A DNA stretch of 64,000 nucleotides from Octopus vulgaris (taxonomy: Eukaryota), in the NCBI GenBank assembly GCA_951406725.2, contig OX597823.1:10850001-10914000 (forward strand), read 5' to 3'. Below, one piece after another: positions 1,284-57,168 of this stretch. Both the position numbers and the translations under genes were made by a program. Every line of letters begins with the position of its first letter. The stretch's first letter is position 1. Below the pieces are notes generated by a model. The model saw nothing but the letters and a program-made list of their open reading frames with translations. It did no database searches and had not been told where the DNA came from.

Positions 1284-2175
1284 CACGTGCTAGTATATGT
1301 ATATATATGTGTGTGTGCGTGTATGTGTACCTGTATGTGTATACGTGTATGCACGTCTGTATGTATACATATACATATATATATGAATGTGTGTGTGTGT
1401 ACTTGTATGTGTATAGTGTATGTATACATATGTATATGAATGTGTGTGTGTATTTGTATGTGTATATGTGTATGTACGTGTGTATGTATACATATATATA
1501 TGAATGTGTGTGTGTATTTGTATGTGTATATGTGTATGTACGTGTGTATGTATACATATATATATGAATGTGTGTGTATATGTGTATGTGTATATGTGTA
1601 TGTACGTGTGTATGTATACATATATATGTGAATGTGTGTGTGTGTACTTGTATGTGTATAGTGTATGTATACATATATATATGAATGTGTGTGTGTATTT
1701 GTATGTGTATATGTGTATGTACGTATGTATGTATACATATATATATGAATGTGTGTGTGTACTTGTATGTGTATAGTGTATGTATACATATATATATGAA
1801 TGTGTGTGTGTATTTGTATGTGTATATGTGTATGTACGTGTGTATGTATACATATATATATGAATGTGTGTGTGTGTACTTGTATGTGTATAGTGTATGT
1901 ATACATATATATATGAATGTGTGTGTGTATTTGTATGTGTATATGTGTATGTACGTGTGTATGTATACATATATATATGAATGTGTGTGTGTATTTGTAC
2001 TTGTATGTGTATAGTGTATGTATACATATATATATGAATGTGTGTGTGTACTTGTATGTGTATAGTGTATGTACGTATGTATGTATACATATATATATGA
2101 ATGTGTGTGTACTTGTATGAGTATACGTGTGTATACGTAAGTATATACGTATGTACATACATATGTGTATTTGTG
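1220..2175. repeat. (CA)n followed by a higher-order TG/TA satellite with ~54-64 bp units
   Basis: Recurring unit TGAATGTGTGTGTGTA(T/C)TTGTATGTGTATA...GTATACATATATATA; source of the spurious H/T/Y/I ORFs. Confidence 0.95.
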
Positions 2176-2394
2176 CATATATGTGCTTGTAAGTGCGCAT
2201 GTACCCAGTCCCTCACATTTAAAAATAAAACTGAATAATAACGATTAGACTTTGTTTTTTTAACCTTGATCATAGAACTGCTTGATCAGAACTCGCCTGG
2301 GTTCAATCAATAACGTCAACGATAAACAGTGCTGGGCTCAGAGAATATGCAATAAAATTCTCTCTATGTAGAAACAGAACGAAACCTAGCAATG

Positions 2395-2932
2395 ATTGTT
2401 TTGTTTGTTCCTTCTCGATCCACACCTGGCACATTGGGGCCGGTTTCCCGGTTTCCTTAGCGTATAGTTTCCCCACCTGGACGGGGCGCCGGTCCGTCGC
2501 TGGTGAGCTGCAAGATGCAGAAGGAAAGAGTTGAGAGAAAGTTGTGGCGAAAGAGTCAGCAGATGTTCGCCAATACCTTCTGCCGTAGCCGCGTGGAGCT
2601 TAGGTGTTTCGCTCATAAACACACACAACGCCCCGTTTGAGATTCGAACCTGTGATCCCTTGATCGCGAGACCGCTGCTCTAACCTATTTCTTTACTACC
2701 CACAAGGGGCTAAACATAGAGAGGACGAACAAGGACAGACAAACGGATTAAGTCGATCATATCGACCCCAGTGCGTAACTGTACTTATTTAATCGACCCC
2801 GAAAGGATGAAAGGCAAAGTCGACTTCGGCGGAATTTGAACTCAGAACGTAACGGCAGACGAAATACCGCTAAGCATTTCGCCCGGCGCGCTAACGTTTC
2901 TGCCAGCTCACCACTAGGCCATGTGCCTTCAC
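2395..2932 (-). mobile_element. tRNA-headed SINE (group C) interrupted in its head by a family A SINE
   Basis: Minus-strand head GTGAAGGCACATGGCCTAGTGG|...|TTAGAGCAGCGG...GGTTCGAATCTC is split by 2685-2912. Middle shared with 16731-17119, tail shared with 50744-50995. Confidence 0.7.
2685..2912 (-). mobile_element. SINE family A, nested in a group C SINE
   Basis: Near-identical to the unit at 474-706. Confidence 0.85.
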
Positions 2933-3276
2933 CAATGATATACAAATATTGATATACAAATATAAAAATATCATGTTATCAGCAACGATATACAAGTATA
3001 AAGATATCGTGATATAAATTGTATATCAGCAATGATATAGAAATAGATAAATATCTTCTTATCGATGAGTCTTTTGCACAGATATCTTGTTTGTATAATT
3101 GTTGTTGTTGTTGTTGTTTTCTGCCGCTGCTGCTACTGTTGTTGTTTTTGTTGTTGTTTAACCTCTTTCAACACTCGACAGACTATAACTTATGATCAAG
3201 GACATTCCAACCGCGGCCATCCTATTTCTTTTCAGAGTTAGTACTTTTCATGAATTCTATATATTTTAAAATTCGT

Positions 3277-3805
3277 TTACTTGCTTCAGACAATTGACTG
3301 TGGCCATGCTGGGGCATTACTCTGGAGGGTCTTCTTCATTAAATCCACTTCAACATTTATTTTAAGTGTAGTATATTTTTCTATCGAATTCCTTTTGCTG
3401 AACCGCCATTTTACAAAGATAGAACTAATTAAGCGGTGAAACATATATTCACACACATACATATATAAAGATATAAGTGCATATAAATATATGTGTTTGT
3501 ACGTGTGTGTACATATGTATGTGCATACATACATATACACGCACACATACACACATACGTACAAACATACATACATACATACATACATACATACATACAT
3601 ACATACATACATACATACATACATACATACATACATACGTATTCGGTATATGTTAAGCGGCTAAACAATTTCCGTCTATCAAATTCGTTGACAGTTGGTC
3701 AGCCCTGGGCTATTACAAAAGATGCTCATAGTGTGCCATATGGAGTCACTGAACCGGAAACCACGTGGCTGCAAAATAAATTTCATTTCATAGCAATGCC
3801 TGGTT
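3277..3805 (-). mobile_element. Old SINE family B copy with expanded internal (CATA)n microsatellite
   Basis: Diverged tail half (TTGACTGTGGCCATGCTGG, 3277-3420) and diverged head half (3668-3805) flank a (CATA)n tract. Confidence 0.55.
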
Positions 3806-5491
3806 TAGAACTTTATATTTGGAGTACCTTCTTTTGTAACGTTTGAGTATGATTTTAGAGGGGAAATATCTGTTACTTCTAGCAGATCGAATAATTCCTT
3901 AGAAGCATCCTCGTTGGTTCATGCTTGCTAGTTTTATAATAGACTCGCTGTAGTAGTCAGCACTAACATGGCATTTACTTGATGTGGGTTAGATTTGAAT
4001 AAAACCTCCGAGCAGATTTATTGTAACGATTGACAACCAAAATGAAATCAAAGTATGAATGAAATATCTTAAAATATACTTTCTATTATAATCAGATGAC
4101 GATGATAATTTTGCGCATGCGTTTAAATAATTGGCATATTCTGATATTTCACTCTTTGACTATGTACACACACTATTCAATGAAAATATTTCTGCCTTTA
4201 CATTAGAGTCACGGTTGCGAGTGTCGTAATAGATTGAATGTTATTGCTTTCTCTGAGGATAATATTAACAGTCACGTCTGAAGTTTTATGGTCTTTCCAC
4301 AAGAATAAATTTAGTTTAAAAGGTTTTGTTCATATACATCACGTGATTCTGTTAATACTTCCGGTTAATTAAAAACACAAGCTTATTATTGAAATTTTGC
4401 TTTGAAATCGGCCCATTATTATTTGATTAGGAAACTACTTCCTATGATAATATTGCTCTCACACGCACACATCCTCATTTGAATTTGCTTGAACACAATC
4501 TGAACACATAGGCAGGGATGTTTTAACGGCCCTTATCGCCATTATTACAAATAGGCATTATTTGTGTTATTGTTTTCGTTTCCAATTCTTATTGACACGA
4601 TTTCATAGTCTCTAACTATATTTTATTGCATGTCAAAGCAAACGTTATTCTATTATCTCAGTCGAATACATTATTATTATTATTATCATGTCTATCTCTT
4701 GAACGATCTCTGACCACCCAATCAATGATTTTCAAAGCGTATTTGATCTCAAACCGACCATTTCAAACTGATTGTCTTCGGATAAACAACAGCCTAGAGA
4801 TGTTATCTGAACTCTCGGCCAGGAGGTAAAAAGTCGAACAATAGGCTGTTATGACTCATAATTATAGCCAACAGACGGCATGAAGCTTTTAATATCGACG
4901 TCCTGTAGCGAAATCCTCACTATCAATGCTAGATTGAAAACAAGGCGACAAAACTGTATCACTAATATCTCTTGTACTGTTTTATCGCTGTGAAATCTAA
5001 GAGAAATGATCAGAAATATGGTTAACAGTGCAATCATTGATTCAAAACTACAAGATATTTCTGAATATAACTCATAAGTTATTGAAATAATGCCTGATAT
5101 CAAGCAAAGATAATATTCATAAGTTCATAGCTGAACAAGTTTCCCAATACTAAGGACAATATTATTTAACGATAGCCATCAATCTTTCTAAAAATGAAAA
5201 TTCTATTGTTGTCGGATTTGGGGACGAAAGTATCAAAGAATAAGGAGCTTTGAATGATGTTGGTGGGGGAAGGCTTGAGACGGAATACGGGATCTTTTAC
5301 ACAAACTATATTCTTATGTATATAGTCATTTCTGCTTCTGTTTGAGTGTATGCGTTCGCGCGCTCGTGTGTATACGTGTGTGCATGCATGTGCGTGCATG
5401 TGTGTGTGTGTATATGTGTATGTGCGTGCATGCGTGCGCACATAATCGCAGAAAAGCATTTAGTATGATATTTATAGGTTTAAAAAAATTA

Positions 5492-24974: not shown

Positions 24975-25489
24975 TTTACTTTTTATTAATATTTTCATTA
25001 ATATTTGTATATATACATTATTATAAATGCAAAGCAACACCACACACACTCCTCGAGGGTTTCAATTCCCATTAAAGTATGTGCGATTCTCTGCTTACTC
25101 ATCTACGGTACTCTACATATTTTCTTTTAATATATTTTAATTAATCAGTTATACAGTGCAGTTCTATACTGTATTTTTATTTATTAAGTATTTTTTTTAG
25201 GCAAGAATTTAGGCAAAATTCTATCACAGAAATAATTAAAATCTAAAATAATATAATACCTATCGGACGCAGAATGTATTAATGTACGCACAGAGAGTGG
25301 ATAAAGAAGTTGTTTCCATGAATAATGGGCTGAAGAATGTGTGTTTGTAAAAAAAAAATGCCCGCAGGTTTTTACATGCAAGCAATTTGACATGGTTTCT
25401 AAATATGAATTTATCTTTCTAACAGAAAGAGATATATCCGTCTTACAGAAGGAGAGCATCAAAGAATGAACGATGCCAAACTTTGGTTG

Positions 25490-25855
25490 GGCAGTACAAA
25501 ATTTAAATGGATGTATAGTTCTAACAGACCACTTCTGCAAAAATATTTAAAACTTAATCGATACCCAGCACTGCAATTCAAATATCCCAGAAAATTTATT
25601 AGCAAGGGACCTGACGCAACAGTAATTGCTCTGTCGCAAGCAAAGGCAGATGCGATGAATTTCCCCAAGTCTATCAATAAAAAGATTCCTCAGAAACAAC
25701 AAGGCTTTCTGATAGATTACATATACGAAGATATCGTAACATTCAGCAGCTTTCGGTCCACTTGAGAAATGGTCAACATGCTTATTTAACGCAAATAACT
25801 GCTGTGCAGTAAGTCCAGATCCAAGGGAAACAACGCCTACAGCTATTTTATAAGC
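25490..25855 (+). pseudogene. Decayed Helitron Rep/helicase fragment (mirror copy ~31715-32075 on minus strand)
   Basis: Frameshifted peptides KIFK..CNS..KYPRKFISKGPDA, IQQLSVHLRNGQHAYLT and PRETTPTAIF match, in order, Helitron motifs CNSVKSIKY.CKY.NKG.D, L.VHLENGQRVYF and TTLTAFF. Confidence 0.7.
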
Positions 25856-26075
25856 CAGCCCTAACCCTGACTATATATTGGTGTAGCATCAGAGTCTTTC
25901 CTACTATTCAGGAAACAGCGATGGCGACTACGAAAGTGCTTTTGATGAAGGCCGATTTAGCACCAATTTTGACAGTAGCCACACTGAAGACATTACAAGC
26001 GCTTCTTTCTTCGATTTCCAACCCATTAAGTGGAGGTTCCTGTTCAAGATCTTTGAAGAGGGAGAGGCAAAATAT

Positions 26076-26478
26076 ATATTCTTTCCTACTCTTGGCACAA
26101 AGCCCGAAATTTTGGGGGAGGAGGCTAGTCGGTTAGATTGACTCCAGTACGCAACTGGTTCTTAATTTATCGACCCCGAAAGAATGAAAGGTAAAGTCGA
26201 CCTCGGCGGAATTTGAATTCAGAATGTAACGGCAGACGAAATACCTATTTCTTTGCTACCCACAAGGGGCTAAACACAGAGAGGACAAACAAGGACAGAC
26301 AAACGGATTAAGTCGATTACATCGACCCCGGTGTGTAACTGGTACTTAATTTATCAACCCCGAAAGGATGAAAGGCAAAAATGGCCTCGATGGAGTTTGA
26401 ATTCAGAACGTAACGGCAGACGAAATACGGCTACGCATTTCGCCCGGCGTGCTAACGTTTCTGCCAGCTTGCCGCTTT
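26076..26478 (-). mobile_element. Composite SINE family A (full unit plus headless body of an alternative-tail subfamily)
   Basis: Junction GAAATAG|GTATTTCGTC; TSD AGGCAAAATA on both sides. Confidence 0.8.
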
Positions 26479-27132
26479 AAAGGCAAAATAAATATTGCTT
26501 GACAATCAAACTGACATTTCAGGCCTATCTAGCTTGATTAGAACAGTCCTGAGTAAAACACTTGCCAATATAATTCTTTTAATGCGAAAAGATATTTCAA
26601 GAGAAAACGATCACGATGACGACAAGAATCATTGGAGGGGAGATAGAAATATACATATACACATACATACAGACACTATAAATTGGTGGGCAGGGATTTC
26701 TTTTTAAATGCTTGAAGATTACCACGTGTTTCAAATGAATACAACAGCGTTCCTAAATAACAAAGGAAAATCGTCACAACTTTGCACTGTTTTTTAGAAT
26801 TGACATACAAGAACATGAGTATTATGAAGGAATCTGATTATAAAAAGCTTCTGAAAAGTCGTGAATGATTCAGATTGCTGCGATTGAGTAACTTCTCAAG
26901 TCTGTTGTTCAGGATGGAGAAGGAAATATTTAGCGATTGAGAGTTGTTCATTCTTCTACTCTAAACTAACACTTGTTAGCAATCTTGTAGCAAATATAAA
27001 TTAGCCTCCTCACATCAGAAAGCCCCGAAAAATCAGGAAAGTTTGTTGTCTCTAGCATTGCTTCAGACTGAAACTGGAACCAAAAGTGACGATATGGATG
27101 TAGGTGTATCGTCAAAAGTAACCGCTGATTGT

Positions 27133-30923: not shown

Positions 30924-32265
30924 TCCCCTCCAATGATTCTTGTCGTCATCGTGATCGTTTTCTCTTGAAATATATTTTCGCATTAAAAGAATTATACTGG
31001 CAAGTGTTTTACTCAGGACAGTTCTAATCAAGCTAGATAGGCCTGAAATGTCAGTTTGATTGTCAAGCAATATTTATTTTGCCTTTAAAGCGGCGAGCTG
31101 GCAGAAACTTTAGCACGCCGGGCGAAATGCGTAGCCGTATTTCGGCTGCCGTTACGTTCTGAGTTCAAATTCCGCCGAGGTCGACTTTGCCTTTCATCCT
31201 TTCGGGGTTGGATAAATTAAGTACCAGTTACGCACTGGGGTCGATCTAATCGACTTATCCGTTTGTCTGTCCTTGTTTGTCCTCTCTGTGTTTATCCCCT
31301 TGTAGGAAACAAAGAAATAGGTATTTCGTCAGCCGTTACGTTCTGAATTCAAATTCAGCCGAGGTCGACTTTGCCTTTCATTCTTTCGGGGTCGATAAAT
31401 TAAGAACCAGTTGCGTACTGGAGTCAATCTAATCGACTAGCCGCCTCCCCCAAAATTTCGGGCTTTGTGCCAAGAGTAGGAAAGAATATATATTTTGCCT
31501 CTCCCTCTTCAAAGATCTTGAACAGGAACCTCCACTTAATGGGTTGGAAATCGAAGAAAGAAGCGTTTGTAATGTCTTCAGTGTAGCTATTGTCAAAATT
31601 GGTGCTAAATCGGCCTTCATCAAAAGCACTTTCGTAGTCACCATCGCTGTTTCCTGAATAGTAGGAATGACTCTGATGCTACAGAAATATATAGTCAGGG
31701 TTAGGGCTGGCTTATAAAATAGCTGTAGGCGTTGTTTCCCTTGGATCTGGACTTACTGCACAGCAGTTATTTGCGTTAAATAAGCATGTTGACCATTTCT
31801 CAAGTGGACCGAAAGCTGCTGAATGTTACGATATCTTCGTATATGTAATCTATCAGAAAGCCTTGTTGTTTCTGAGGAATTTTTTTATTGATAGACTTGG
31901 GGAAATTCATCGCATCTGCCTTTGCTTGCGACGGAACAATTACTGTTGCGTCAGGTCCCTTGCTCATAAATTTTCTGGGATATTTGAATTGCAGTGCTGG
32001 GTATTGATTAAGTTTTAAATATTTTTGCAGAAGTGGTCTGCTAGAACTATACACCCATTTAAATTTTGTACTGCCCAACCAAAGTTTGGCATCGTTCATT
32101 CTTCGATGCTCTCCTTCTGTAAGACGGATATATCTCTTTCTGTTAGAAGGATAAATTCATATTTAGAAACCATGTCAAATTGCTTGCATGTAAAAACCTG
32201 CGGGCATTTTTTTTTTTTACAAACACACATTCTTCAGCCCATTATTCATGGAAACAACTTCTATA
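30924..32265 (-). repeat. Right arm of 1.34-kb inverted duplication (contains composite SINE A at 31088-31490)
   Basis: Mirror of 25302-26641; truncates the Gypsy integrase. Confidence 0.95.
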
Positions 32266-36056: not shown

Positions 36057-37558
36057 TTACTCACTTGCCATTATTGAACGACGTTCAAAACACTTCTCAA
36101 ATTCTATGCAATATTTTCTATAAGTAATACATTTTGTTTGCTTTCTTTTTCATAATTATCATTATTATTTCATTCAGTTCAATTAAAAAGCATGGTTAAG
36201 CAACGCATTCTAAGCCGCACAATAATTTGTGAAAAAAAAATGTATCTGCTCTCAGGGTATGCATCGTCCCTCCGGTGTCTTTTACTCATTTATTAGTTTC
36301 GATGAGTATAACTGTCTATAGTCCTTACAAACGGTCTGTGACTGGTTTAAGGAAGAGTTTAAGGAAGAGTTTTCATAGGAATAAATTTTGGATTCGTGAT
36401 ATTGATGATGTAAGAAAGATTGGTAGTTGAGTTCATGGGACTGGATATGTACTCAGTAAGTGCAGAGAAGCTTAGGTCATTGTAGAGACTACAAAATGGG
36501 CAGAGTGAGCAGACAGGTAGATTGTATGATTGTCAGTTAAATTTTGTAGCTTGTTGGTGAATGCCTGTTTGTTCAGTGGGGTACGATTTAAGAAGGCGGC
36601 GAGCTGGCAGAAACGTTAGCACGCCGGGCGAAATGCGTAGCCGTATTTCGTCTACCGTTACGTTCTGAGTTCAAATTCCGCCGAGGTCGACTTTGCCTTT
36701 CATCCTTTCGAGGGTCGATAAATTAAGCACCAATTATGCACTGGGGTCGATGTAATCGGCTTAATATGTTTGTCTGTCCTTGTTTGTCCCCTCTATGTTT
36801 AACCCCTTGTGGGTAATAAAGAAACAGGTGTACGATTTAAGAATAATTGGAGAGGAGTTGGGGGACCTTGCTAATTTATTGCAACTGACAATGTATTTTC
36901 ACTTTTCTTACTGCCTTAGTCGAGAGTAAGGAGCTAGAAAACAATCCATCTGAAAGGGAGAAAAAGGGGGGAAAAAGTAGTGTTGACCCTTTGGTCTGGA
37001 AAGTGTTTCTCATTATATTTTTCCCTAACCAATCAACAACGTCATTTTTCCGCTTTTCTTCATTTTCAGGTAGGAAGCTCCTATGTTTCACTCCATCAGC
37101 CACAAATAGGGGCCAAATGACTTTTATACAATTCGCCATTGTCTTTAACAAAAAGTACTTACTTTAACTGACAATCATACAATCTACCTGTCTGCTCACT
37201 CTGCCCATTTTGCGGTCTCTACAATGACCTAAGCCTCTCTGCACTTACTGAGTACATATCCAGTCCCATGAACTCAACTATCAATCTTTCTTACATCATC
37301 AATATCACGAATCCAAAATTTATTCCTATGAAAACTCTTCCTTAAACTCTTCCTTAAACCCTGAGAGCAGATACATTTTTTTTCACAAATTATTGTGCGG
37401 CTTAGAATGCGTTGCTTAACCATGCTTGTTAATTGAACTGAATGAAATAATAATCATAATTATGAAAAAGAAAGCAAACAAAATGTATTACTTATAGAAA
37501 ATATTGCATAGAATTTGAGAAGTGTTTTGAACGTCGTTCAATAATGGCAAGTGAGTAA
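36057..37558. repeat. Inverted duplication, arms 36057-36541 and 37163-37558
   Basis: Arms are near-identical reverse complements; the right arm lacks an ~87-bp block. Confidence 0.9.
36595..36829 (+). mobile_element. SINE family A, full length
   Basis: 14-bp TSD GTACGATTTAAGAA at 36581-36594 and 36830-36843. Confidence 0.9.
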
Positions 37559-42208: not shown

Positions 42209-42993
42209 CTCAAAGCAGTAATTGTAACACGAGTAAGGGAACAAGCGACTTGTTTAGGTTTTTCGACTGGAAAAAAGAATAATACAGCTTTTGCTGACAT
42301 TGTTATCGTAAAGCAGCCCTTTTCAAACCCTGTCTATACAGACATATGAACAAAGATATTCCATCTGTGACTATCCTATCTTTTCTTTTCAGACGCCACA
42401 GATCTGGGACTACAGATGGGTCGACGTTTGCCCAAGATACCATGCAAACGTTTGAAAGTCCCATGTAGAGGTATCGAAACCAGGGTCTCGTCTTTGCAAA
42501 GAAAACTTCTTAACCATTCTACCATTCGGTGCCTACAAATTAGACAGGCAGGGAGGCATACAGGCAGACATACAGACTGACAGAAAGATAGATAGATAGA
42601 TAGATTGATAGATAGATTGATAGATAGACATCTGTATGTCTGCCTGTATGCCTCCCTGCCTGTCTAATTTGTAGGCACCGAATGGTAGAATGGTTAAGAA
42701 GTTTTCTTTGCAAAGACGAGACCCTGGTTTCGATACCTCTACATGGGACTTTCAAACGTTTGCATGGTATCTTGGGCAAACGTCGACCCATCTGTAGTCC
42801 CAGATCTGTGGCGTCTGAAAAGATAGGATAGTCACAGATGGAATATCTTTGTTCATATGTCTGTATAGACAGGGTTTGAAAAGGGCTGCTTTACGATAAC
42901 AATGTCAGCAAAAGCTGTATTATTCTTTTTTCCAGTCGAAAAACCTAAACAAGTCGCTTGTTCCCTTACTCGTGTTACAATTACTGCTTTGAG
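42209..42993. repeat. Near-perfect fold-back: arms 42209-42576 and 42631-42993, (GATA)n spacer
   Basis: Arms appear identical by eye except for a 5-bp TTTTC indel. Confidence 0.95.
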
Positions 42994-49032: not shown

Positions 49033-49316
49033 AAATAAGAAAATGGAGAAATACATCTAAATCATTTATCAACTACCAGATAATACCCAATCATATACTT
49101 TATTAAACCACTACATTAGAACATTAGGGTTAAACATCCCATGGAGGGTTGAATTTGCAACCCCTATCTCAATTTGTATATATATCTATATATATATATA
49201 TATATGTATACATACATAATTAATAATATCAGGGTAATAAAGATTTTAGAAAGTTTTACTACAAGTGGCCTAGCGTATAAAAAAATTAGTCAATAGCCTA
49301 TATATTATTCATATAA

Positions 49317-49490
49317 AATACAGTGTACATTTAAACACATTAAGAGGTATCCATCATAAGACTCCCTTACGCTAGAAGGAACACCTAAAGTTCAAACCAC
49401 TAATTAGTGATTTGGACTTTAGCTGTTCCTTCTAGCGTAAGGGGGTCCTATTATGGATACCTCTTAATGTGTTTAAATGTACACTATATT
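49317..49490. repeat. Spacerless imperfect ~170-bp palindrome
   Basis: Centre CACTAATTAGTG (49398-49409); arms AGTGTACATTTAAACACATTAAGAGGTATCCAT.../...ATGGATACCTCTTAATGTGTTTAAATGTACACT. Confidence 0.9.
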
Positions 49491-49634
49491 ATATATATAC
49501 ATATATATATACATATAGATGCGCATGAGTCGTTCAAGAGACCCTAAGTCAAGGAAAGATGCATTCGTATATGGTCAGTAAAGTGGGTATATTTTCCGAA
49601 ATGTATACTATTAAATATCCATCACGGTTGATCA

Positions 49635-49707: not shown

Positions 49708-50706
49708 AGTTAGCCGATATGGAAGGGAATATAGCGACTGCTCTTTATTGTCGGAGGGAGATTAGCACAAACGGTCAGCGGCTGCTGTGAAAAAAAAGGT
49801 GGGCATAATCAAAATTAATTATTAGTGTCTGAAGCAGAATTTTGTCTGCTACAATCTATATATGCACCAAGCGCCTGCATAAGGTCGACTTTCATCTTTT
49901 GGGGCTCGATGAATTAAGTACCAATTGTACACTGGGCCCGATGTAATTGACTAGCTCCTTTCCTCAAATTTCAATTTTTTGCCTCTAGTTGAAAGGATTA
50001 TTGTCGAAAAAAACCAAGGTGAAAATTACTTAGCGGCACGTCGTCCATATTTACGTTCTGAGTTCAGATTCCGTCAAGGTTGACTTTGCCTTTCATGCTC
50101 CCGAGTTCGAGGGAATAAGCTTTGTGCCTGTAGTAAAAGGATTATTATCAGAAAGACGTCAACCCAAAGAAAACAATATGAACGGGTTCCAGTACAAATG
50201 CTAATTTATAAATATACACATGGTATACAATTATATATAAACGCACACAGACACACACACACATATTCATACATACATTCATGCATACAAAGATACATAT
50301 ATATATACATACACACGCACATACATACACATACATACACACATACACTCAGACACACACACACACACACACCTGCACATTCATACTCATACATGCATAT
50401 GCAGGCGTATATCAAATGAATATGTGAGTAGAGGTGGGTGAGTGGTTGTAAAATTGCTCTATATAAAAGATGTGTGAGTGTGTGTGTGTGTGTATGGAAA
50501 ATAAAATAAATTATCATTTAAATAAGGATACATATATAATTTTCTTTCAAGAAAACTTCAATAAGAAAATCGATAAAAATAGTACAGGAATTCTATGAAG
50601 GCAGACGAGAAATATGAAGACAGAACCAAAAGCAACCATTCTATATTTGTTATATAACAGATAATTGTATAGTATCTACGAGGATATATGTTTGTCTAAG
50701 TGTGGT

Positions 50707-50741
<35 letters not shown>

Positions 50742-50743
50742 TT

Positions 50744-50995
50744 GTGTGGAGGCGCGTGGCTCAGTGGTTAGGGTGTCAGCATCATGATCGTAAGATTGTG
50801 GTTTCGCTTCCTGGACCGGGCGACGCGTTGTGTTCTGGAGCAAAACACTTCATTTCACGTTGCTCCAGTTCACTCAGCTGGCAAAAAAGAATAACGCTGC
50901 GATGGACTGGCGTCCCGTACACCTGGGAAACACATACGCCATTGAAACCGGGAAACCGGGCTCATGAGCCTGGCTGGCTAGGCTTTAAAAGAGCG
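50744..50995 (+). mobile_element. tRNA-headed SINE (group C relative) with CORE-like and V-like modules
   Basis: TGGCTCAGTGG A box, GGTTTCGCTTCC B-box-like, GTTGTGTTCTGGAGCAAAACACTT and CTGCGATGGACTGGCGTCCCGT modules (module names from memory). Confidence 0.7.
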
Positions 50996-51047
<52 letters not shown>

Positions 51048-51195
51048 TCAATAAATGGTGGGGTTGTGTTGACCGCACGTGGAGAAATGATAAGTAAGGA
51101 AAAATTTTTTTTTTAAAATACAGAATGCTCAAAGGAAAGAAAAATTTTAATAATAATAAAATGAGAAAATGATAAAATATATAAATATATATATT

Positions 51196-51236
51196 TATTC
51201 AACCGGTTTTCGTCAATGTATGACTTGTCAAGAATA
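51196..51236 (-). ncRNA. Variant hammerhead-like motif in PLE 3' end (left copy)
   Basis: Exact mirror of 56737-56777. Confidence 0.55.
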
Positions 51237-51871
51237 TTTATGTTTTAAGAAGTTTTTTTAAAAATTAGAAAGGGGAAAAAAAGAAAATTGCAATGTTTTT
51301 TGTAAAAGAATAATGATAAAAATGTACAAAAATTAAAAAACAAGTTCTCCGATACATTGTGAGTTCGTTGTGTATCTTGAGTTTTATGGTTGTTTACCAA
51401 AAAATTACCTTGAGGTGTTAAGATCCAAAGGGATTAAGAGCATGTGATGTGTTGTGTTGTTAAATTCAGCATGTTGCAGGACAGGAAGTAGTAGTAATTG
51501 TGGTCCTGGTTCTTCAGTTCCTGTGTTGTGAGTAAGGGGAGACAACTCTTTTGAGTTCTTCAATAAAACCCAAATTATAAAACTATCATTTTAGCTTCAT
51601 TTGCATTATCTTTTTTATATAATTGCTTGTTAACTTAACTTTCAGATTTTAACACTTTATTTATATTATTTTCTAATAATATAAAACTGCATAGACAATT
51701 GCATTTCAAATTGTCATATCATTTATAATAAAAATGATAGTAGTAACAACAACAATAGTGAAAATGATATTTAAAGAATATAAGTTTTAGCTTGAAGTGG
51801 TGAATGCATGGTATCTTTATATATTTGTGTTAGTCCATCCATGAAGAGTGAGGTAGAGAAAGGAAGTTTGA

Positions 51872-53071
51872 TCAACGAGGAGTTTGCATATTAAGTTGTG
51901 TTTGGAATTTTTCAATAAAGAGATTCTCCTTGTTAATTCTCTCCTGTGTGGTGATCCCGTCTTTACATTGGTAGAAGGGGAATATATAGAATTTGGGGTT
52001 TAAGTCTTTAGCACATGAGTCTAAGTGGTCACTCAGTGGAATTTGTCGGTATTCCGGGAGATTTATTTGTTCTTTATGCACCGTTACTCGTTTACGTAAC
52101 GGGAGACTCGTTTGTCCCACATAATTATGTTGGCAACCAGCGCATGTGAGAACGTAGATAAGGTTCTCGGAGGAACAGGAGAAGTTAGTCTTGATTTTAA
52201 ACTTCGTACCTTGTTTGAAGGTAAATTCAGAGCCTTCAAGTAGAAAGGGGCAGGTACCACAGTTTGAGCGTGCACATTTTTTTACTGTTGGGGGTGGATG
52301 TGGTGTGTGAAGTTTGGCATTTGTCAAGAGTTTTTTTAAAGATTTGTGTTGCCTTTTGCATTTGAGGATTTTGTGTGTATTTATAATGTTTTTCATTTTT
52401 GGGTCTGTTGACAGTAGACTGAGGTTTTGTATGATTGTGGTGTATGCTTCGATATTTTTGGGGTTGTGGGTGGAAATGTATGGAAGTATTTTGAGGTTGT
52501 GTGTGGTGTTAGGTTGGGTGGTTATCAGTGTAGTGTTGTCTAGTTCTTTGGCGCGTTTTATTCCATACTCTATAAGGGTGGAGGGATATTGACGTTGTAA
52601 TAGTGTTTTTTTGAGGTCTTGAAGGCGTATTTCTCGTGTTTTTGGATCCGAGACAATGGTGCATACCCTTTTAGCTAAATTGAAAGGGATATTTGTCTTG
52701 GTGTGTTTTGGGTGGCATGAACTAAAGAGGAGGTATTGTTGTGAGTCTGTAGGTTTGTGGTAGATGTCTGTTATGATTTGGTTCTTAGGTGTTTTTATAA
52801 TTAGGAGATCAAGGAATGGGAGGTGATGTTTGCTAAATTCCATAGTGAATTGGATGTTGGGATGTATGTTGTTTAGTATGGTTTTGAATTCCAGGAGTTT
52901 TTCATAAGGTTCTTTCCATATGATGAAACAATCATCTAAATACCTTTTCCAGTTTTCCATTAGGTAGGTGTGGAAAACATGTCCAAATTTCTGGCTTGAT
53001 ATTTCATAGAGTGACAGTTCGAAGTAACCCATTATGAGGTTCGCAAGGACTGGTGCAGCCTTGGTACCCAT
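51872..53071 (-). CDS. PLE ORF C-terminal part: RT palm/thumb, Cys linker, GIY-YIG endonuclease
   Basis: MG..AP..ANL, WKRYLDDCF, PFLDLLI, CARSNCGTC, NLIYVLTCAGCQHNYVGQT; 399 aa, identical in protein to the + copy. Confidence 0.92.
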   Translation of the reverse strand: MGTKAAPVLANLIMGYFELSLYEISSQKFGHVFHTYLMENWKRYLDDCFIIWKEPYEKLLEFKTILNNIHPNIQFTMEFSKHHLPFLDLLIIKTPKNQIITDIYHKPTDSQQYLLFSSCHPKHTKTNIPFNLAKRVCTIVSDPKTREIRLQDLKKTLLQRQYPSTLIEYGIKRAKELDNTTLITTQPNTTHNLKILPYISTHNPKNIEAYTTIIQNLSLLSTDPKMKNIINTHKILKCKRQHKSLKKLLTNAKLHTPHPPPTVKKCARSNCGTCPFLLEGSEFTFKQGTKFKIKTNFSCSSENLIYVLTCAGCQHNYVGQTSLPLRKRVTVHKEQINLPEYRQIPLSDHLDSCAKDLNPKFYIFPFYQCKDGITTQERINKENLFIEKFQTQLNMQTPR

Positions 53072-53940
53072 CGCAATGCCACATTTTGACGGTAGTGTGT
53101 GTCGTCGAAGAGAAAAAAATTGTTTGTCAGAATGAACTTAAGAGATTCTGTAATAAAAGACTTGTTAATGCGGTCAGGGAATGTCTCTGGGTGTTTTTCT
53201 AGCCAGAAGTCAATTGCCTCTATACCATACTCATGTGGAATGTTGGTGTAGAGGTTGATGACATCAAAGGATACCAGGAGTGCCTCCTCGTTAACTGTTT
53301 TCGGGAGGTGTTTGAGCATGTCCAGATCATCCCTAATGAAACTTTTGATGTGGGTAAGGAAAGGTTTCAAAAGGATGTCTAGGAAGTTACTCAGGCGGTG
53401 TGTTTCACAGGAGGTACCAGCCACGATGGGCCTTAGTTTTAGGTCCTCCGGTGCTTTGATGTTGATGTGGATGTCAGTGGAGAGTTTGCAGGCTTCGGTG
53501 ATGTATTTGTTTTTATGGATTTTAGGAAGGCCATAAAAAAGGCTGGGCTTGCATTTGAAAATGGTGATATAATCCCTTTCTTTTTCTGTGAGTCCCTGAC
53601 CGTGTTGGCGTATGAGTGTGGTGAGGTTTCTGATTGTTTTTTGCTGTTTGTAGTTGTTAATAACCTCATAGAAAATGTTATTGTTAAGCATGGAGAACAC
53701 TAGGTGTTTATAAAATTCCGTGTCCATAAGGACCACAGCACTCCCTTTGTCCGCTTCTTTGATGGTGAGGTTTTTATCCAGTTGTATGTCACGTAGGTTT
53801 TCCCATTCTTCCTTACTGAAATTGGATTTTACCTTGGTTTTGCTTGGGGTAAAGGGGAGACTCTGGATGTGTTTACAGAAATCGTCCAGTGTTTTATTTC
53901 TCCCTTTTGGTGGTAGGAAGTTGCTTTTATTTCTGATCAA
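53032..53940 (-). CDS. PLE ORF N-terminal RT part (5'-truncated; frameshift at A-run 53084-53087)
   Basis: IKEADKG, FYGLPKIHK, LRPIV, SFDVINLYTNIP motifs. Confidence 0.9.
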   Translation of the reverse strand: MIRNKSNFLPPKGRNKTLDDFCKHIQSLPFTPSKTKVKSNFSKEEWENLRDIQLDKNLTIKEADKGSAVVLMDTEFYKHLVFSMLNNNIFYEVINNYKQQKTIRNLTTLIRQHGQGLTEKERDYITIFKCKPSLFYGLPKIHKNKYITEACKLSTDIHINIKAPEDLKLRPIVAGTSCETHRLSNFLDILLKPFLTHIKSFIRDDLDMLKHLPKTVNEEALLVSFDVINLYTNIPHEYGIEAIDFWLEKHPETFPDRINKSFITESLKFILTNNFFLFDDTHYRQNVALRWVPRLHQSLRTS

Positions 53941-54941
53941 GAACACCCAAGGTCAAGGAAGACGTTTCTGAATTCTGCAGAAAACTTCGCCTAACAGAAG
54001 CTTTGACAGATATCAACAATGGGGACGACTCATTGATCAGAAATAAAAGCAACTTCCTACCACCAAAAGGGAGAAATAAAACACTGGACGATTTCTGTAA
54101 ACACATCCAGAGTCTCCCCTTTACCCCAAGCAAAACCAAGGTAAAATCCAATTTCAGTAAGGAAGAATGGGAAAACCTACGTGACATACAACTGGATAAA
54201 AACCTCACCATCAAAGAAGCGGACAAAGGGAGTGCTGTGGTCCTTATGGACACGGAATTTTATAAACACCTAGTGTTCTCCATGCTTAACAATAACATTT
54301 TCTATGAGGTTATTAACAACTACAAACAGCAAAAAACAATCAGAAACCTCACCACACTCATACGCCAACACGGTCAGGGACTCACAGAAAAAGAAAGGGA
54401 TTATATCACCATTTTCAAATGCAAGCCCAGCCTTTTTTATGGCCTTCCTAAAATCCATAAAAACAAATACATCACCGAAGCCTGCAAACTCTCCACTGAC
54501 ATCCACATCAACATCAAAGCACCGGAGGACCTAAAACTAAGGCCCATCGTGGCTGGTACCTCCTGTGAAACACACCGCCTGAGTAACTTCCTAGACATCC
54601 TTTTGAAACCTTTCCTTACCCACATCAAAAGTTTCATTAGGGATGATCTGGACATGCTCAAACACCTCCCGAAAACAGTTAACGAGGAGGCACTCCTGGT
54701 ATCCTTTGATGTCATCAACCTCTACACCAACATTCCACATGAGTATGGTATAGAGGCAATTGACTTCTGGCTAGAAAAACACCCAGAGACATTCCCTGAC
54801 CGCATTAACAAGTCTTTTATTACAGAATCTCTTAAGTTCATTCTGACAAACAATTTTTTCTCTTCGACGACACACACTACCGTCAAAAATGTGGCATTGC
54901 GATGGGTACCAAGGCTGCACCAGTCCTTGCGAACCTCATAA
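53940..54941 (+). CDS. PLE ORF N-terminal RT part (5'-truncated; frameshift at T-run 54854-54859)
   Basis: Frame open from the junction: RTPKVKEDVSEFCRKLRLTE..., then IKEADKG, FYGLPKIHK, LRPIV, SFDVINLYTNIP. Confidence 0.9.
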   Translation, partial: RTPKVKEDVSEFCRKLRLTEALTDINNGDDSLIRNKSNFLPPKGRNKTLDDFCKHIQSLPFTPSKTKVKSNFSKEEWENLRDIQLDKNLTIKEADKGSAVVLMDTEFYKHLVFSMLNNNIFYEVINNYKQQKTIRNLTTLIRQHGQGLTEKERDYITIFKCKPSLFYGLPKIHKNKYITEACKLSTDIHINIKAPEDLKLRPIVAGTSCETHRLSNFLDILLKPFLTHIKSFIRDDLDMLKHLPKTVNEEALLVSFDVINLYTNIPHEYGIEAIDFWLEKHPETFPDRINKSFITESLKFILTNNFFSSTTHTTVKNVALRWVPRLHQSLRTS

Positions 54942-56101
54942 TGGGTTACTTCGAACTGTCACTCTATGAAATATCAAGCCAGAAATTTGGACATGTTTTC
55001 CATACCTACCTAATGGAAAACTGGAAAAGGTATTTAGATGATTGTTTCATCATATGGAAAGAACCTTATGAAAAACTCCTGGAATTCAAAACCATACTAA
55101 ACAACATACATCCCAACATCCAATTCACTATGGAATTTAGCAAACATCACCTCCCATTCCTTGATCTCCTAATTATAAAAACACCTAAGAACCAAATCAT
55201 AACAGACATCTACCACAAACCTACAGACTCACAACAATACCTCCTCTTTAGTTCATGCCACCCAAAACACACCAAGACAAATATCCCTTTCAATTTAGCT
55301 AAAAGGGTATGCACCATTGTCTCGGATCCAAAAACACGAGAAATACGCCTTCAAGACCTCAAAAAAACACTATTACAACGTCAATATCCCTCCACCCTTA
55401 TAGAGTATGGAATAAAACGCGCCAAAGAACTAGACAACACTACACTGATAACCACCCAACCTAACACCACACACAACCTCAAAATACTTCCATACATTTC
55501 CACCCACAACCCCAAAAATATCGAAGCATACACCACAATCATACAAAACCTCAGTCTACTGTCAACAGACCCAAAAATGAAAAACATTATAAATACACAC
55601 AAAATCCTCAAATGCAAAAGGCAACACAAATCTTTAAAAAAACTCTTGACAAATGCCAAACTTCACACACCACATCCACCCCCAACAGTAAAAAAATGTG
55701 CACGCTCAAACTGTGGTACCTGCCCCTTTCTACTTGAAGGCTCTGAATTTACCTTCAAACAAGGTACGAAGTTTAAAATCAAGACTAACTTCTCCTGTTC
55801 CTCCGAGAACCTTATCTACGTTCTCACATGCGCTGGTTGCCAACATAATTATGTGGGACAAACGAGTCTCCCGTTACGTAAACGAGTAACGGTGCATAAA
55901 GAACAAATAAATCTCCCGGAATACCGACAAATTCCACTGAGTGACCACTTAGACTCATGTGCTAAAGACTTAAACCCCAAATTCTATATATTCCCCTTCT
56001 ACCAATGTAAAGACGGGATCACCACACAGGAGAGAATTAACAAGGAGAATCTCTTTATTGAAAAATTCCAAACACAACTTAATATGCAAACTCCTCGTTG
56101 A
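54902..56101 (+). CDS. PLE ORF C-terminal part: RT palm/thumb, Cys linker, GIY-YIG endonuclease
   Basis: YLDD catalytic motif; CxxxxCxxC linker typical of the Neptune clade; LIY-x10-YVG GIY-YIG with CxxC; conserved R, H, E, LN. Confidence 0.92.
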   Translation: MGTKAAPVLANLIMGYFELSLYEISSQKFGHVFHTYLMENWKRYLDDCFIIWKEPYEKLLEFKTILNNIHPNIQFTMEFSKHHLPFLDLLIIKTPKNQIITDIYHKPTDSQQYLLFSSCHPKHTKTNIPFNLAKRVCTIVSDPKTREIRLQDLKKTLLQRQYPSTLIEYGIKRAKELDNTTLITTQPNTTHNLKILPYISTHNPKNIEAYTTIIQNLSLLSTDPKMKNIINTHKILKCKRQHKSLKKLLTNAKLHTPHPPPTVKKCARSNCGTCPFLLEGSEFTFKQGTKFKIKTNFSCSSENLIYVLTCAGCQHNYVGQTSLPLRKRVTVHKEQINLPEYRQIPLSDHLDSCAKDLNPKFYIFPFYQCKDGITTQERINKENLFIEKFQTQLNMQTPR

Positions 56102-56736
56102 TCAAACTTCCTTTCTCTACCTCACTCTTCATGGATGGACTAACACAAATATATAAAGATACCATGCATTCACCACTTCAAGCTAAAACTTATATTCTTT
56201 AAATATCATTTTCACTATTGTTGTTGTTACTACTATCATTTTTATTATAAATGATATGACAATTTGAAATGCAATTGTCTATGCAGTTTTATATTATTAG
56301 AAAATAATATAAATAAAGTGTTAAAATCTGAAAGTTAAGTTAACAAGCAATTATATAAAAAAGATAATGCAAATGAAGCTAAAATGATAGTTTTATAATT
56401 TGGGTTTTATTGAAGAACTCAAAAGAGTTGTCTCCCCTTACTCACAACACAGGAACTGAAGAACCAGGACCACAATTACTACTACTTCCTGTCCTGCAAC
56501 ATGCTGAATTTAACAACACAACACATCACATGCTCTTAATCCCTTTGGATCTTAACACCTCAAGGTAATTTTTTGGTAAACAACCATAAAACTCAAGATA
56601 CACAACGAACTCACAATGTATCGGAGAACTTATTTTTTAATTTTTGTACATTTTTATCATTATTCTTTTACAAAAAACATTGCAATTTTCTTTTTTTCCC
56701 CTTTCTAATTTTTAAAAAAACTTCTTAAAACATAAA

Positions 56737-56777
56737 TATTCTTGACAAGTCATACATTGACGAAAACCGGTTGAATA
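56737..56777 (+). ncRNA. Variant hammerhead-like motif in PLE 3' end (right copy)
   Basis: TATTC-TTGACAA-GTCA(tacat)TGAC-GAAA-ACCGG-TT-GAATA: helix I TATTC/GAATA, U3-A8 instead of C3-G8, palindrome AACCGGTT, one extra A. Confidence 0.55.
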
Positions 56778-56888
56778 AATATATATATTTATATATTTTA
56801 TCATTTTCTCATTTTATTATTATTAAAATTTTTCTTTCATTTGAGCATTCTGCATTTAAAAAAAAAAAAAAAAAAATTTTTCCTTACT

Positions 56889-56948
<60 letters not shown>

Positions 56949-56980
56949 TGTATGTATGTATGTATGTATGTATGTATATA

Positions 56981-57011
<31 letters not shown>

Positions 57012-57168
57012 GTATATATATATATATATCATTGCCTATCTATCTGGCTATCTGTCTTTCTCTGTTTCTGCGTGCATATATGTCGAATATATTTGCGCAC
57101 ATATTTGTGTGAATATCGTGTGGTTTACATACGCATATACATATAACTATATATAATAGTGACTCACG

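Follow-up and report, generated by a model that had tools for sequence, protein, structure and literature searches.

The stretch of Octopus vulgaris DNA analysed here, hereafter the window, comprises 64,000 nucleotides (GenBank assembly GCA_951406725.2, contig OX597823.1, positions 10,850,001 to 10,914,000) and harbours at 51046-56891 a palindrome formed by two copies of a Penelope-like element (PLE) arranged head to head. Both copies, or arms, are truncated at their 5' end and carry a frame for a reverse transcriptase (RT) followed by a GIY-YIG endonuclease (EN). They are 99.75% identical over the 2,837 nt aligned within the window, and differ by four substitutions, three of which fall in the last 300 nt, by two single-base homopolymer indels and by the length of an A run. 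Both outer ends of the palindrome lie in a (TA)n-rich microsatellite (Table 1), and no target-site duplication is readable in the right-hand flank. On the left, the palindrome sits in the (TA)n tail of a high-copy repeat (50750-50995) resembling a short interspersed element (SINE), with a putative tRNA-like head. No further copy of the palindrome's RT was found elsewhere in the window.

A preliminary description of this DNA, made from the letters alone, had recognised the two inverted arms with their handful of differences, the (TA)n at both ends and the 44 nt by which the left 3' end is longer, all of which were borne out. Other points have to be amended. The description placed the truncation points 92 bp apart, which is the length of the unpaired spacer; on the 4,616-bp family unit, defined from locus L039, these points (1731 and 1628) are separated by 103 nt, because the spacer has an 8-nt deletion, in addition to one substitution, with regard to sister copies. 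The junction, thought to fall on a TGATCA palindrome, is in fact a CAA microhomology, and TGATCA is ordinary adjoining element sequence. The arms, described as near-equal with nearly full ORFs (open reading frames), do retain most of the RT-EN frame, but each amounts to only about 63% of the unit, both lacking the first 1.6 kb, namely, the 5' pseudo-long terminal repeat (pLTR), ORF1 and the INLS...GLKFTPTP start of the RT protein. The palindrome is a dead copy, from which no RT expression is possible and which has not been copied onward as a unit.

Table 1. Features of the palindrome and its flanks, in window positions.
Feature	Position	Strand	Remarks
(TA)25 target flank	50996..51045	.	3' end of the high-copy SINE-like repeat
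Left arm, 5'-truncated PLE copy	51046..53940	-	Family unit 1731-4616, tailed
44-nt tail	51046..51089	-	Left arm only
Mirror hammerhead-type motif (putative)	51196-51236	-	Left arm
RT-thumb-linker-GIY-YIG frame, left arm	51872..53940	-	One 1-nt homopolymer frameshift near 53087
RT-thumb-linker-GIY-YIG frame, right arm	53937..56101	+	N-terminally truncated; one 1-nt homopolymer frameshift near 54853
Right arm, 5'-truncated PLE copy	53938..56891	+	Family unit 1628-4572, tail-less
Head-to-head junction, 3-nt microhomology CAA	53938..53940	.	Junction sequence occurs once in the genome
92-nt unpaired spacer	53941..54032	+	Element sequence, right arm only
YLDD motif, right arm	55031-55042	+	
CX4CxxC linker, Zn-finger-like, CARSNCGTC	55697..55723	+	Neptune/Nematis/Naiad type
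GIY-YIG core (LIY...YVG) with CCHH residues	55811..55951	+	
Minimal type-I hammerhead motif (putative), U3-A8 core variant	56737..56777	+	ACCGGU palindrome replaces helix III
Indel haplotype common to both arms	56808..56838	+	Left-arm counterpart 51135-51165
(TA)n/(TATG)n/(TG)n target flank	56892..57029	.	

The presence of RT and GIY-YIG domains in each arm, as announced by the preliminary description, was substantiated by an RVT_1 match above the Pfam cut-off (E = 7.7e-08) and by a GIY-YIG match that falls below it (E = 0.0015), the residues LIY..C..C..YVG, H and H being legible in the sequence. The frames of the two arms start at residues 33 and 65 of a 753-aa RT-EN frame, in which GIY-YIG occupies residues 658-745, i.e., the C-terminus. 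Naiad/Chlamys membership, which calls for an N-terminal endonuclease, was rejected on this ground. An RT with a C-terminal GIY-YIG domain carrying the CCHH residues, on the one hand, and partial tandems, inverted truncated copies and a tail, on the other, are the domain and pLTR features of EN-containing (EN+) PLEs, and the octopus family has them all. The CX2-5CxxC pattern is found within the last 260 aa of all 120 homologs listed, none of which bears a clade name, and the spacer resembles, in a comparison by eye, the Neptune and not the Nematis rows in Fig. S2 of PMC8557442. In that figure, Neptune-1_Ac and DrerioNep1 share with the octopus family the C-terminal GIY-YIG with CCHH, the CX2-5CxxC linker, (TA)n targets and a long spacer ending in FKI...F.C. 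Judged by these motifs, by the spacer comparison and by (TA)n targeting, the family is Neptune-like, as first suggested, and differs from Neptune clade PLEs by a separate ORF1 of no Pfam family. Some close homologs (P0036, P0049, P0060, P0067, P0081 and P0094) are filed under bacterial symbionts of molluscs, and are probably host DNA in those assemblies.

Between the stop at 56101 and the end of the right arm at 56891 lie 790 nt, in agreement with the 3' region of about 790 bp reported initially. The ribozyme-like motif noted there and in the left arm fits a minimal, putative type-I hammerhead, whose helices I and II appear in the centroid fold and whose core is near-invariant in about 150-160 sampled segments. 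A minimal hammerhead motif in the pLTR is a further trait of EN+ PLEs, and covariation of the U3-A8 core has been described for PLE hammerheads (PMC4209133). An Rfam scan returned no hammerhead hit, only microsatellite- or hairpin-driven microRNA hits below the gathering score, and the folding z-score of the hammerhead region was not significant.

The family was then surveyed in the genome. A search with the junction region gave 386 candidates, of which 40 were scored, while exact-pattern searches matched the tail at 625 places and the hammerhead region at 146. From these, 129 regions were sampled: 20 from the best genome-search matches, 60 covering the first 64 tail matches listed and 49 completing the first 100 hammerhead matches listed; L078 and L130 were excluded since they overlap other loci. 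In tandem copies, the tail directly precedes the unit start, and 21 such exact tandem junctions are present in the genome. Because most full-length copies share about 99% identity with the L039 unit, the family can be regarded as young, as was proposed. The head-to-head arrangement, initially deemed unusual, turned out to be common: it is displayed by 40 of the 64 loci that were chosen irrespective of the tail, and both outer arms reach at least 2 kb in 11 of the 68 sampled head-to-head insertions. None of the sampled loci holds a tail-to-tail insertion. With 120 of 124 outer ends in (TA)n, compared with 5% of 40-mers drawn at random from the window, the suspected target preference holds over the family. 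Every sampled locus has its own junction, and the junction 27-mer of the window occurs once in the 2.8-Gb genome; the palindrome as an autonomous mobile unit, palindromic or of the terminal inverted repeat type, was discarded accordingly. The PLE family is new, of a known kind, and the window locus is a real, ordinary insertion. More elaborate forms were also encountered: in L118, both arms begin at unit position 1655 and enclose a nested, inverted segment (unit 995-1610); L071 is a chain of short 3' pieces in alternating inverted orientation; and L032 is an 8.7-kb palindrome with an identical 43-nt inverted insert in each arm.

The 44-bp asymmetry of the window palindrome is an instance of a family rule, the tail measuring 44-47 nt from copy to copy. 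Among the 34 head-to-head loci of the tail-independent sample that could be classed, 33 combine a tailed outer end with a tail-less one, a single locus being tail-less twice and none tailed twice; among single-arm insertions of the same sample, tailed and tail-less ends are equally frequent (12:12). Independent choice at the two ends predicts that half of the loci would be discordant (binomial p = 2e-9). When all samples are pooled, 12 of the 68 head-to-head loci have one unreadable end and were excluded from tail classing, and 55 of the remaining 56 are mixed. The tail-selected sample, which was able to reveal double tails, contains 20 mixed loci and no double-tailed one.

The two arms of a locus also appear to derive from a common template. 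In 307 comparisons at subfamily-diagnostic sites, paired arms were in agreement 302 times (181 expected), and they share private variants at 0.79 per kb, compared with 0.009 per kb over 1,788 cross-locus pairs. After 25 of the 47 simple pairs had been dropped for having less than 400 aligned nt, the arms of 21 of the 22 pairs with enough overlap proved to differ less from each other than from the median other copy. The indel haplotype of the window has exactly two occurrences in the genome, one per arm, and the 43-nt rearrangement of L032 is likewise confined to its own two arms. Long inverted repeats can undergo gene conversion. We considered that two copies of different source, inserted jointly or in turn, might have been homogenised later by conversion or by polishing of the assembly. 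The case of L074, whose arms are 0.45% apart with the nearest other copy 2.2% away, can be read in this way. Conversion would, however, have to be near-complete at all 29 tabulated loci and yet leave 0.64 unshared private variants per kb, the effect of polishing is weak, given that homopolymer lengths differing from those of short-read contigs persist in these repeats, and the tail rule would be left unexplained; we hold this explanation to be improbable. In other respects, differences between paired arms climb toward the 3' end (0.15%, 0.25%, 0.51%; family unit 4331-4572), a rise that could be due to AT-rich error or mutation, or to a switch between two template pLTR copies.

With regard to the 5' ends, the tailed arm reaches further in 21 of the 47 simple pairs, the tail-less arm in 24, and 2 pairs are equal. 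These ends lie within 110 nt of each other in 13 pairs, against 3.4 expected by permutation. The junctions, 9 of them blunt, 17 microhomologous and 21 with inserted bases, look like end-joining. The preliminary description had put fold-back of the cDNA on an equal footing with priming from both strands; one cDNA or antisense template would fold at a short palindrome and copy itself. Fold-back would explain the shared private variants directly, TGATCA does stand at the 5' end of the left arm, and a version via an antisense template has been proposed for rotifer Penelopes (PMC3846280). Simple fold-back is nevertheless rejected because neither arm of the window is a subset of the other, the right one having extra 5' sequence and the left one the tail, each absent from its partner; the same holds in 24 of the 47 simple pairs. 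Priming at a palindrome fares no better: 6-bp palindromes are found within 5 nt of 22 of 94 5' ends, against 12 expected from a flat background, but this excess is not significant under a local control (16.3, p = 0.08) and vanishes within 3 nt (11 compared with 10.8). As short palindromes are not enriched at junctions under this control, TGATCA is probably there by chance, and fold-back has little probability.

A different explanation of the tail rule and of the shared haplotype invokes two RNAs in one insertion, in which an asymmetric RT dimer would carry two transcripts of the same locus, each subunit being fixed to one start site. It accounts for both observations equally well, is compatible with arms of unequal length, and a dimer has been predicted for the Poseidon PLE of Anolis (PAc; PMC11167929). 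Against it, both RNAs would have to stem from one locus despite at least 21 tandem-junction copies and several subfamilies, and the excess of near-equal 5' ends is not predicted. We therefore rate it as unlikely, though less so than homogenisation or fold-back.

The reality of the junction was addressed by placing contigs of four public runs on 50300-54032. A contig joint at 53940-54032 was not retained as support, since it represents instead the normal continuation of the element. A C run at unit 1641-1646 has a length of 5 in each of 25 assembled copies and of 6 in loose contig ends of all four runs; only the latter length keeps the RT frame aligned with the homologs, the former breaking the frame of nearly every full-length copy. 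The assembly thus seems to shorten homopolymers in these repeats, so the two arm frameshifts may be assembly errors; the extra base at 53083 is present in contigs of three of the four runs. An apparent rearrangement hot spot at unit 1641-1647 was set aside as probably an artefact of the search query. Such homopolymer errors, and the fact that no read or contig bridging the window junction was seen among the pieces listed for the four runs, would suit a palindrome created by fold-back of a read or of the assembly. We consider this to be the least probable of the alternatives, and very improbable in itself, as the palindrome has two different flanks and bears the tail typical of the family on one outer end only, the 92-nt spacer consists of genuine upstream element sequence, and the head-to-head form recurs in 67 other sampled loci. 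As to the public runs, a share of 0.62-0.65 of the sampled words is present in those labelled organisms B and C, and the element has deep coverage in run X9 (organism B), which indicates that the PLE family is near-identical in samples bearing other species labels.

On balance, the window palindrome is likely to stem from a single event primed in (TA)n by both target strands, as the preliminary description had put forward, with the same RNA as template for the two syntheses; the tail rule, the shared haplotype and the (TA)n ends support it. The GIY-YIG domain would nick both target strands. One 3' end would prime at an inner start site, giving the tail-less arm, and the other at an outer site 44 nt further 3', giving the tailed arm, the tail stretch being still single-stranded and hence usable by the second primer. 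The first cDNA would be displaced by the second synthesis, both cDNAs would halt around unit 1630-1730, where the RNA perhaps had a break or pause site common to the two, and they would then be end-joined over CAA, second strands being filled in by the host. All of these steps are inferred, the order of priming and the strand displacement included.

Several points weigh against priming of both arms on one RNA. The arms of L033, L035 and L059 are 0.4-1.3% apart, private-variant densities fit one RNA or two transcripts of one source locus alike, and the sharing of haplotypes may also fit later gene conversion or assembly homogenisation. Neither outer end of locus L147 carries a tail. Most pairs are unequal in arm length; the excess of near-equal arms is weaker once short insertions and loci selected by ORF are removed, with 6 of 31 pairs having their 5' ends within 110 nt (2.5 expected, p = 0.03), and in this strictest subset (n = 31) the rank correlation is 0.12, which is not significant. 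The missing bridge over the window junction belongs here too. Finally, no difference in start site between top and bottom strand was seen in vitro in PMC11167929, contrary to what the pairing rule would lead one to expect.

Twin priming is known for L1, in which a single RNA is copied from primers on both target strands and microhomology joins the two cDNAs. The second primer of L1 anneals far inside the RNA, yielding two non-overlapping segments, whereas the two arms of the octopus family, with starts no more than 47 nt apart, are copies of the same kilobases. Among PLEs, a head-to-head inverted copy with a tail on one end is already described by Craig et al. (2021, PMC8557442) and Arkhipova et al. 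(2013, PMC3846280), where canonical EN+ insertions comprise an inverted, 5'-truncated copy and a one-sided tail of 30-40 bp. The octopus family resembles them in its head-to-head copies, one-end tail, partial tandems, microsatellite targets and lack of a readable target-site duplication, and differs from them in a tail of 44-47 nt and in arms that are kilobases long rather than pLTR-sized. The tail, called 'optional' or 'often at one end' in these accounts, was counted here, and its pairing, which may have been described before, is nearly strict. PAc, characterised in vitro by Frangieh et al. (2024, PMC11167929), nicks AT-rich DNA and extends it on both strands, and its RT starts at two adjacent RNA sites bounding the tail; both properties match the scheme inferred above. 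PAc belongs to the Poseidon clade and has a single ORF with the tail inside the ORF start, in contrast to the octopus family, in which the tail lies upstream of ORF1. That study does not show pairing of the two start sites within one event.

Full-length copies possess an upstream ORF1, which matches no Pfam family and has five homologs; the two-ORF layout was observed at L039:4880-6545 (unit 24-1690). At its end, ORF1 overlaps the RT frame, with an in-phase U UUU UUA at the overlap whose T6 is present in 31 of 31 copies, and the RT frame has no ATG ahead of its first conserved motif. A second family (L160-L189), with an RT 58% identical, has an identical heptamer, likewise in phase and 123 nt ahead of the GLKF motif, together with an ATG just downstream, and FL[DE] occurs shortly ahead of the stop in four of the five ORF1 homologs. 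From these sequence features, ORF1 is probably joined to RT by a programmed -1 ribosomal frameshift. T6 in the first family may, however, reflect a systematic T7-to-T6 assembly error, and no strong stimulatory structure was found downstream of the slippery site (z = -0.1). According to the Fig. 1 legend of PMC8557442, some PLE types allow a frameshift-separated ORF1; a literature search for ribosomal or programmed frameshifting in Penelope-like (Neptune) elements gave no match, an earlier description being possible. No ORF1 relative was confirmed in metagenome contigs. In G000, among 134 places scored, many more PLE families were observed that share this ORF1, their open frames measuring about 437-500 aa; some of them are in tandem or head-to-head pairs and offer a second data set for the tail rule.

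The rest of the window offers other inverted structures. A 1.34-kb inverted repeat pair that does not belong to this PLE family (25302-26641 and 30924-32265) is 96.4% identical and separated by 4.3 kb; a palindrome of about 785 bp is centred on (GATA)n at 42209-42993; a palindrome or inverted pair of about 210 bp lies at 49299-49507; and two inverted pairs, each of about 200 bp and 98% identical, are located at 36057-37558. No host exon was recognisable by eye in frames of at least 110 aa over window 1-50000 (no Pfam scan was run on them), and no tRNA gene was found. The preliminary description suggested that read-through of the palindrome would yield dsRNA of about 2.8 kb, a potential trigger of self-silencing or editing. 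With respect to ADAR-type editing, no hyper-edited copy was seen among the sampled segments, except for one with 5 T>C among 8 changes.

The formation of tandem and inverted PLE structures is named an open question in PMC8557442, and is only partly answered in PMC11167929. We tentatively propose, granting it slightly less than even credence, that Penelope insertion is an ordered twin priming on a single RNA molecule, in which the tail would be the sole second-strand start, tailed and tail-less ends would be obligatory partners, near-symmetric palindromes would mark an RNA end or break, and the enzyme would be made by -1 frameshift from a separate ORF1. Long arms supply kilobases of haplotype for testing a common template, which short stubs cannot do, and the counts turn the qualitative remark that a tail is often at one end into a rule directly testable in the existing in vitro system. 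The value of the finding lies in these family counts, which make a testable model of how Penelope elements integrate more precise.

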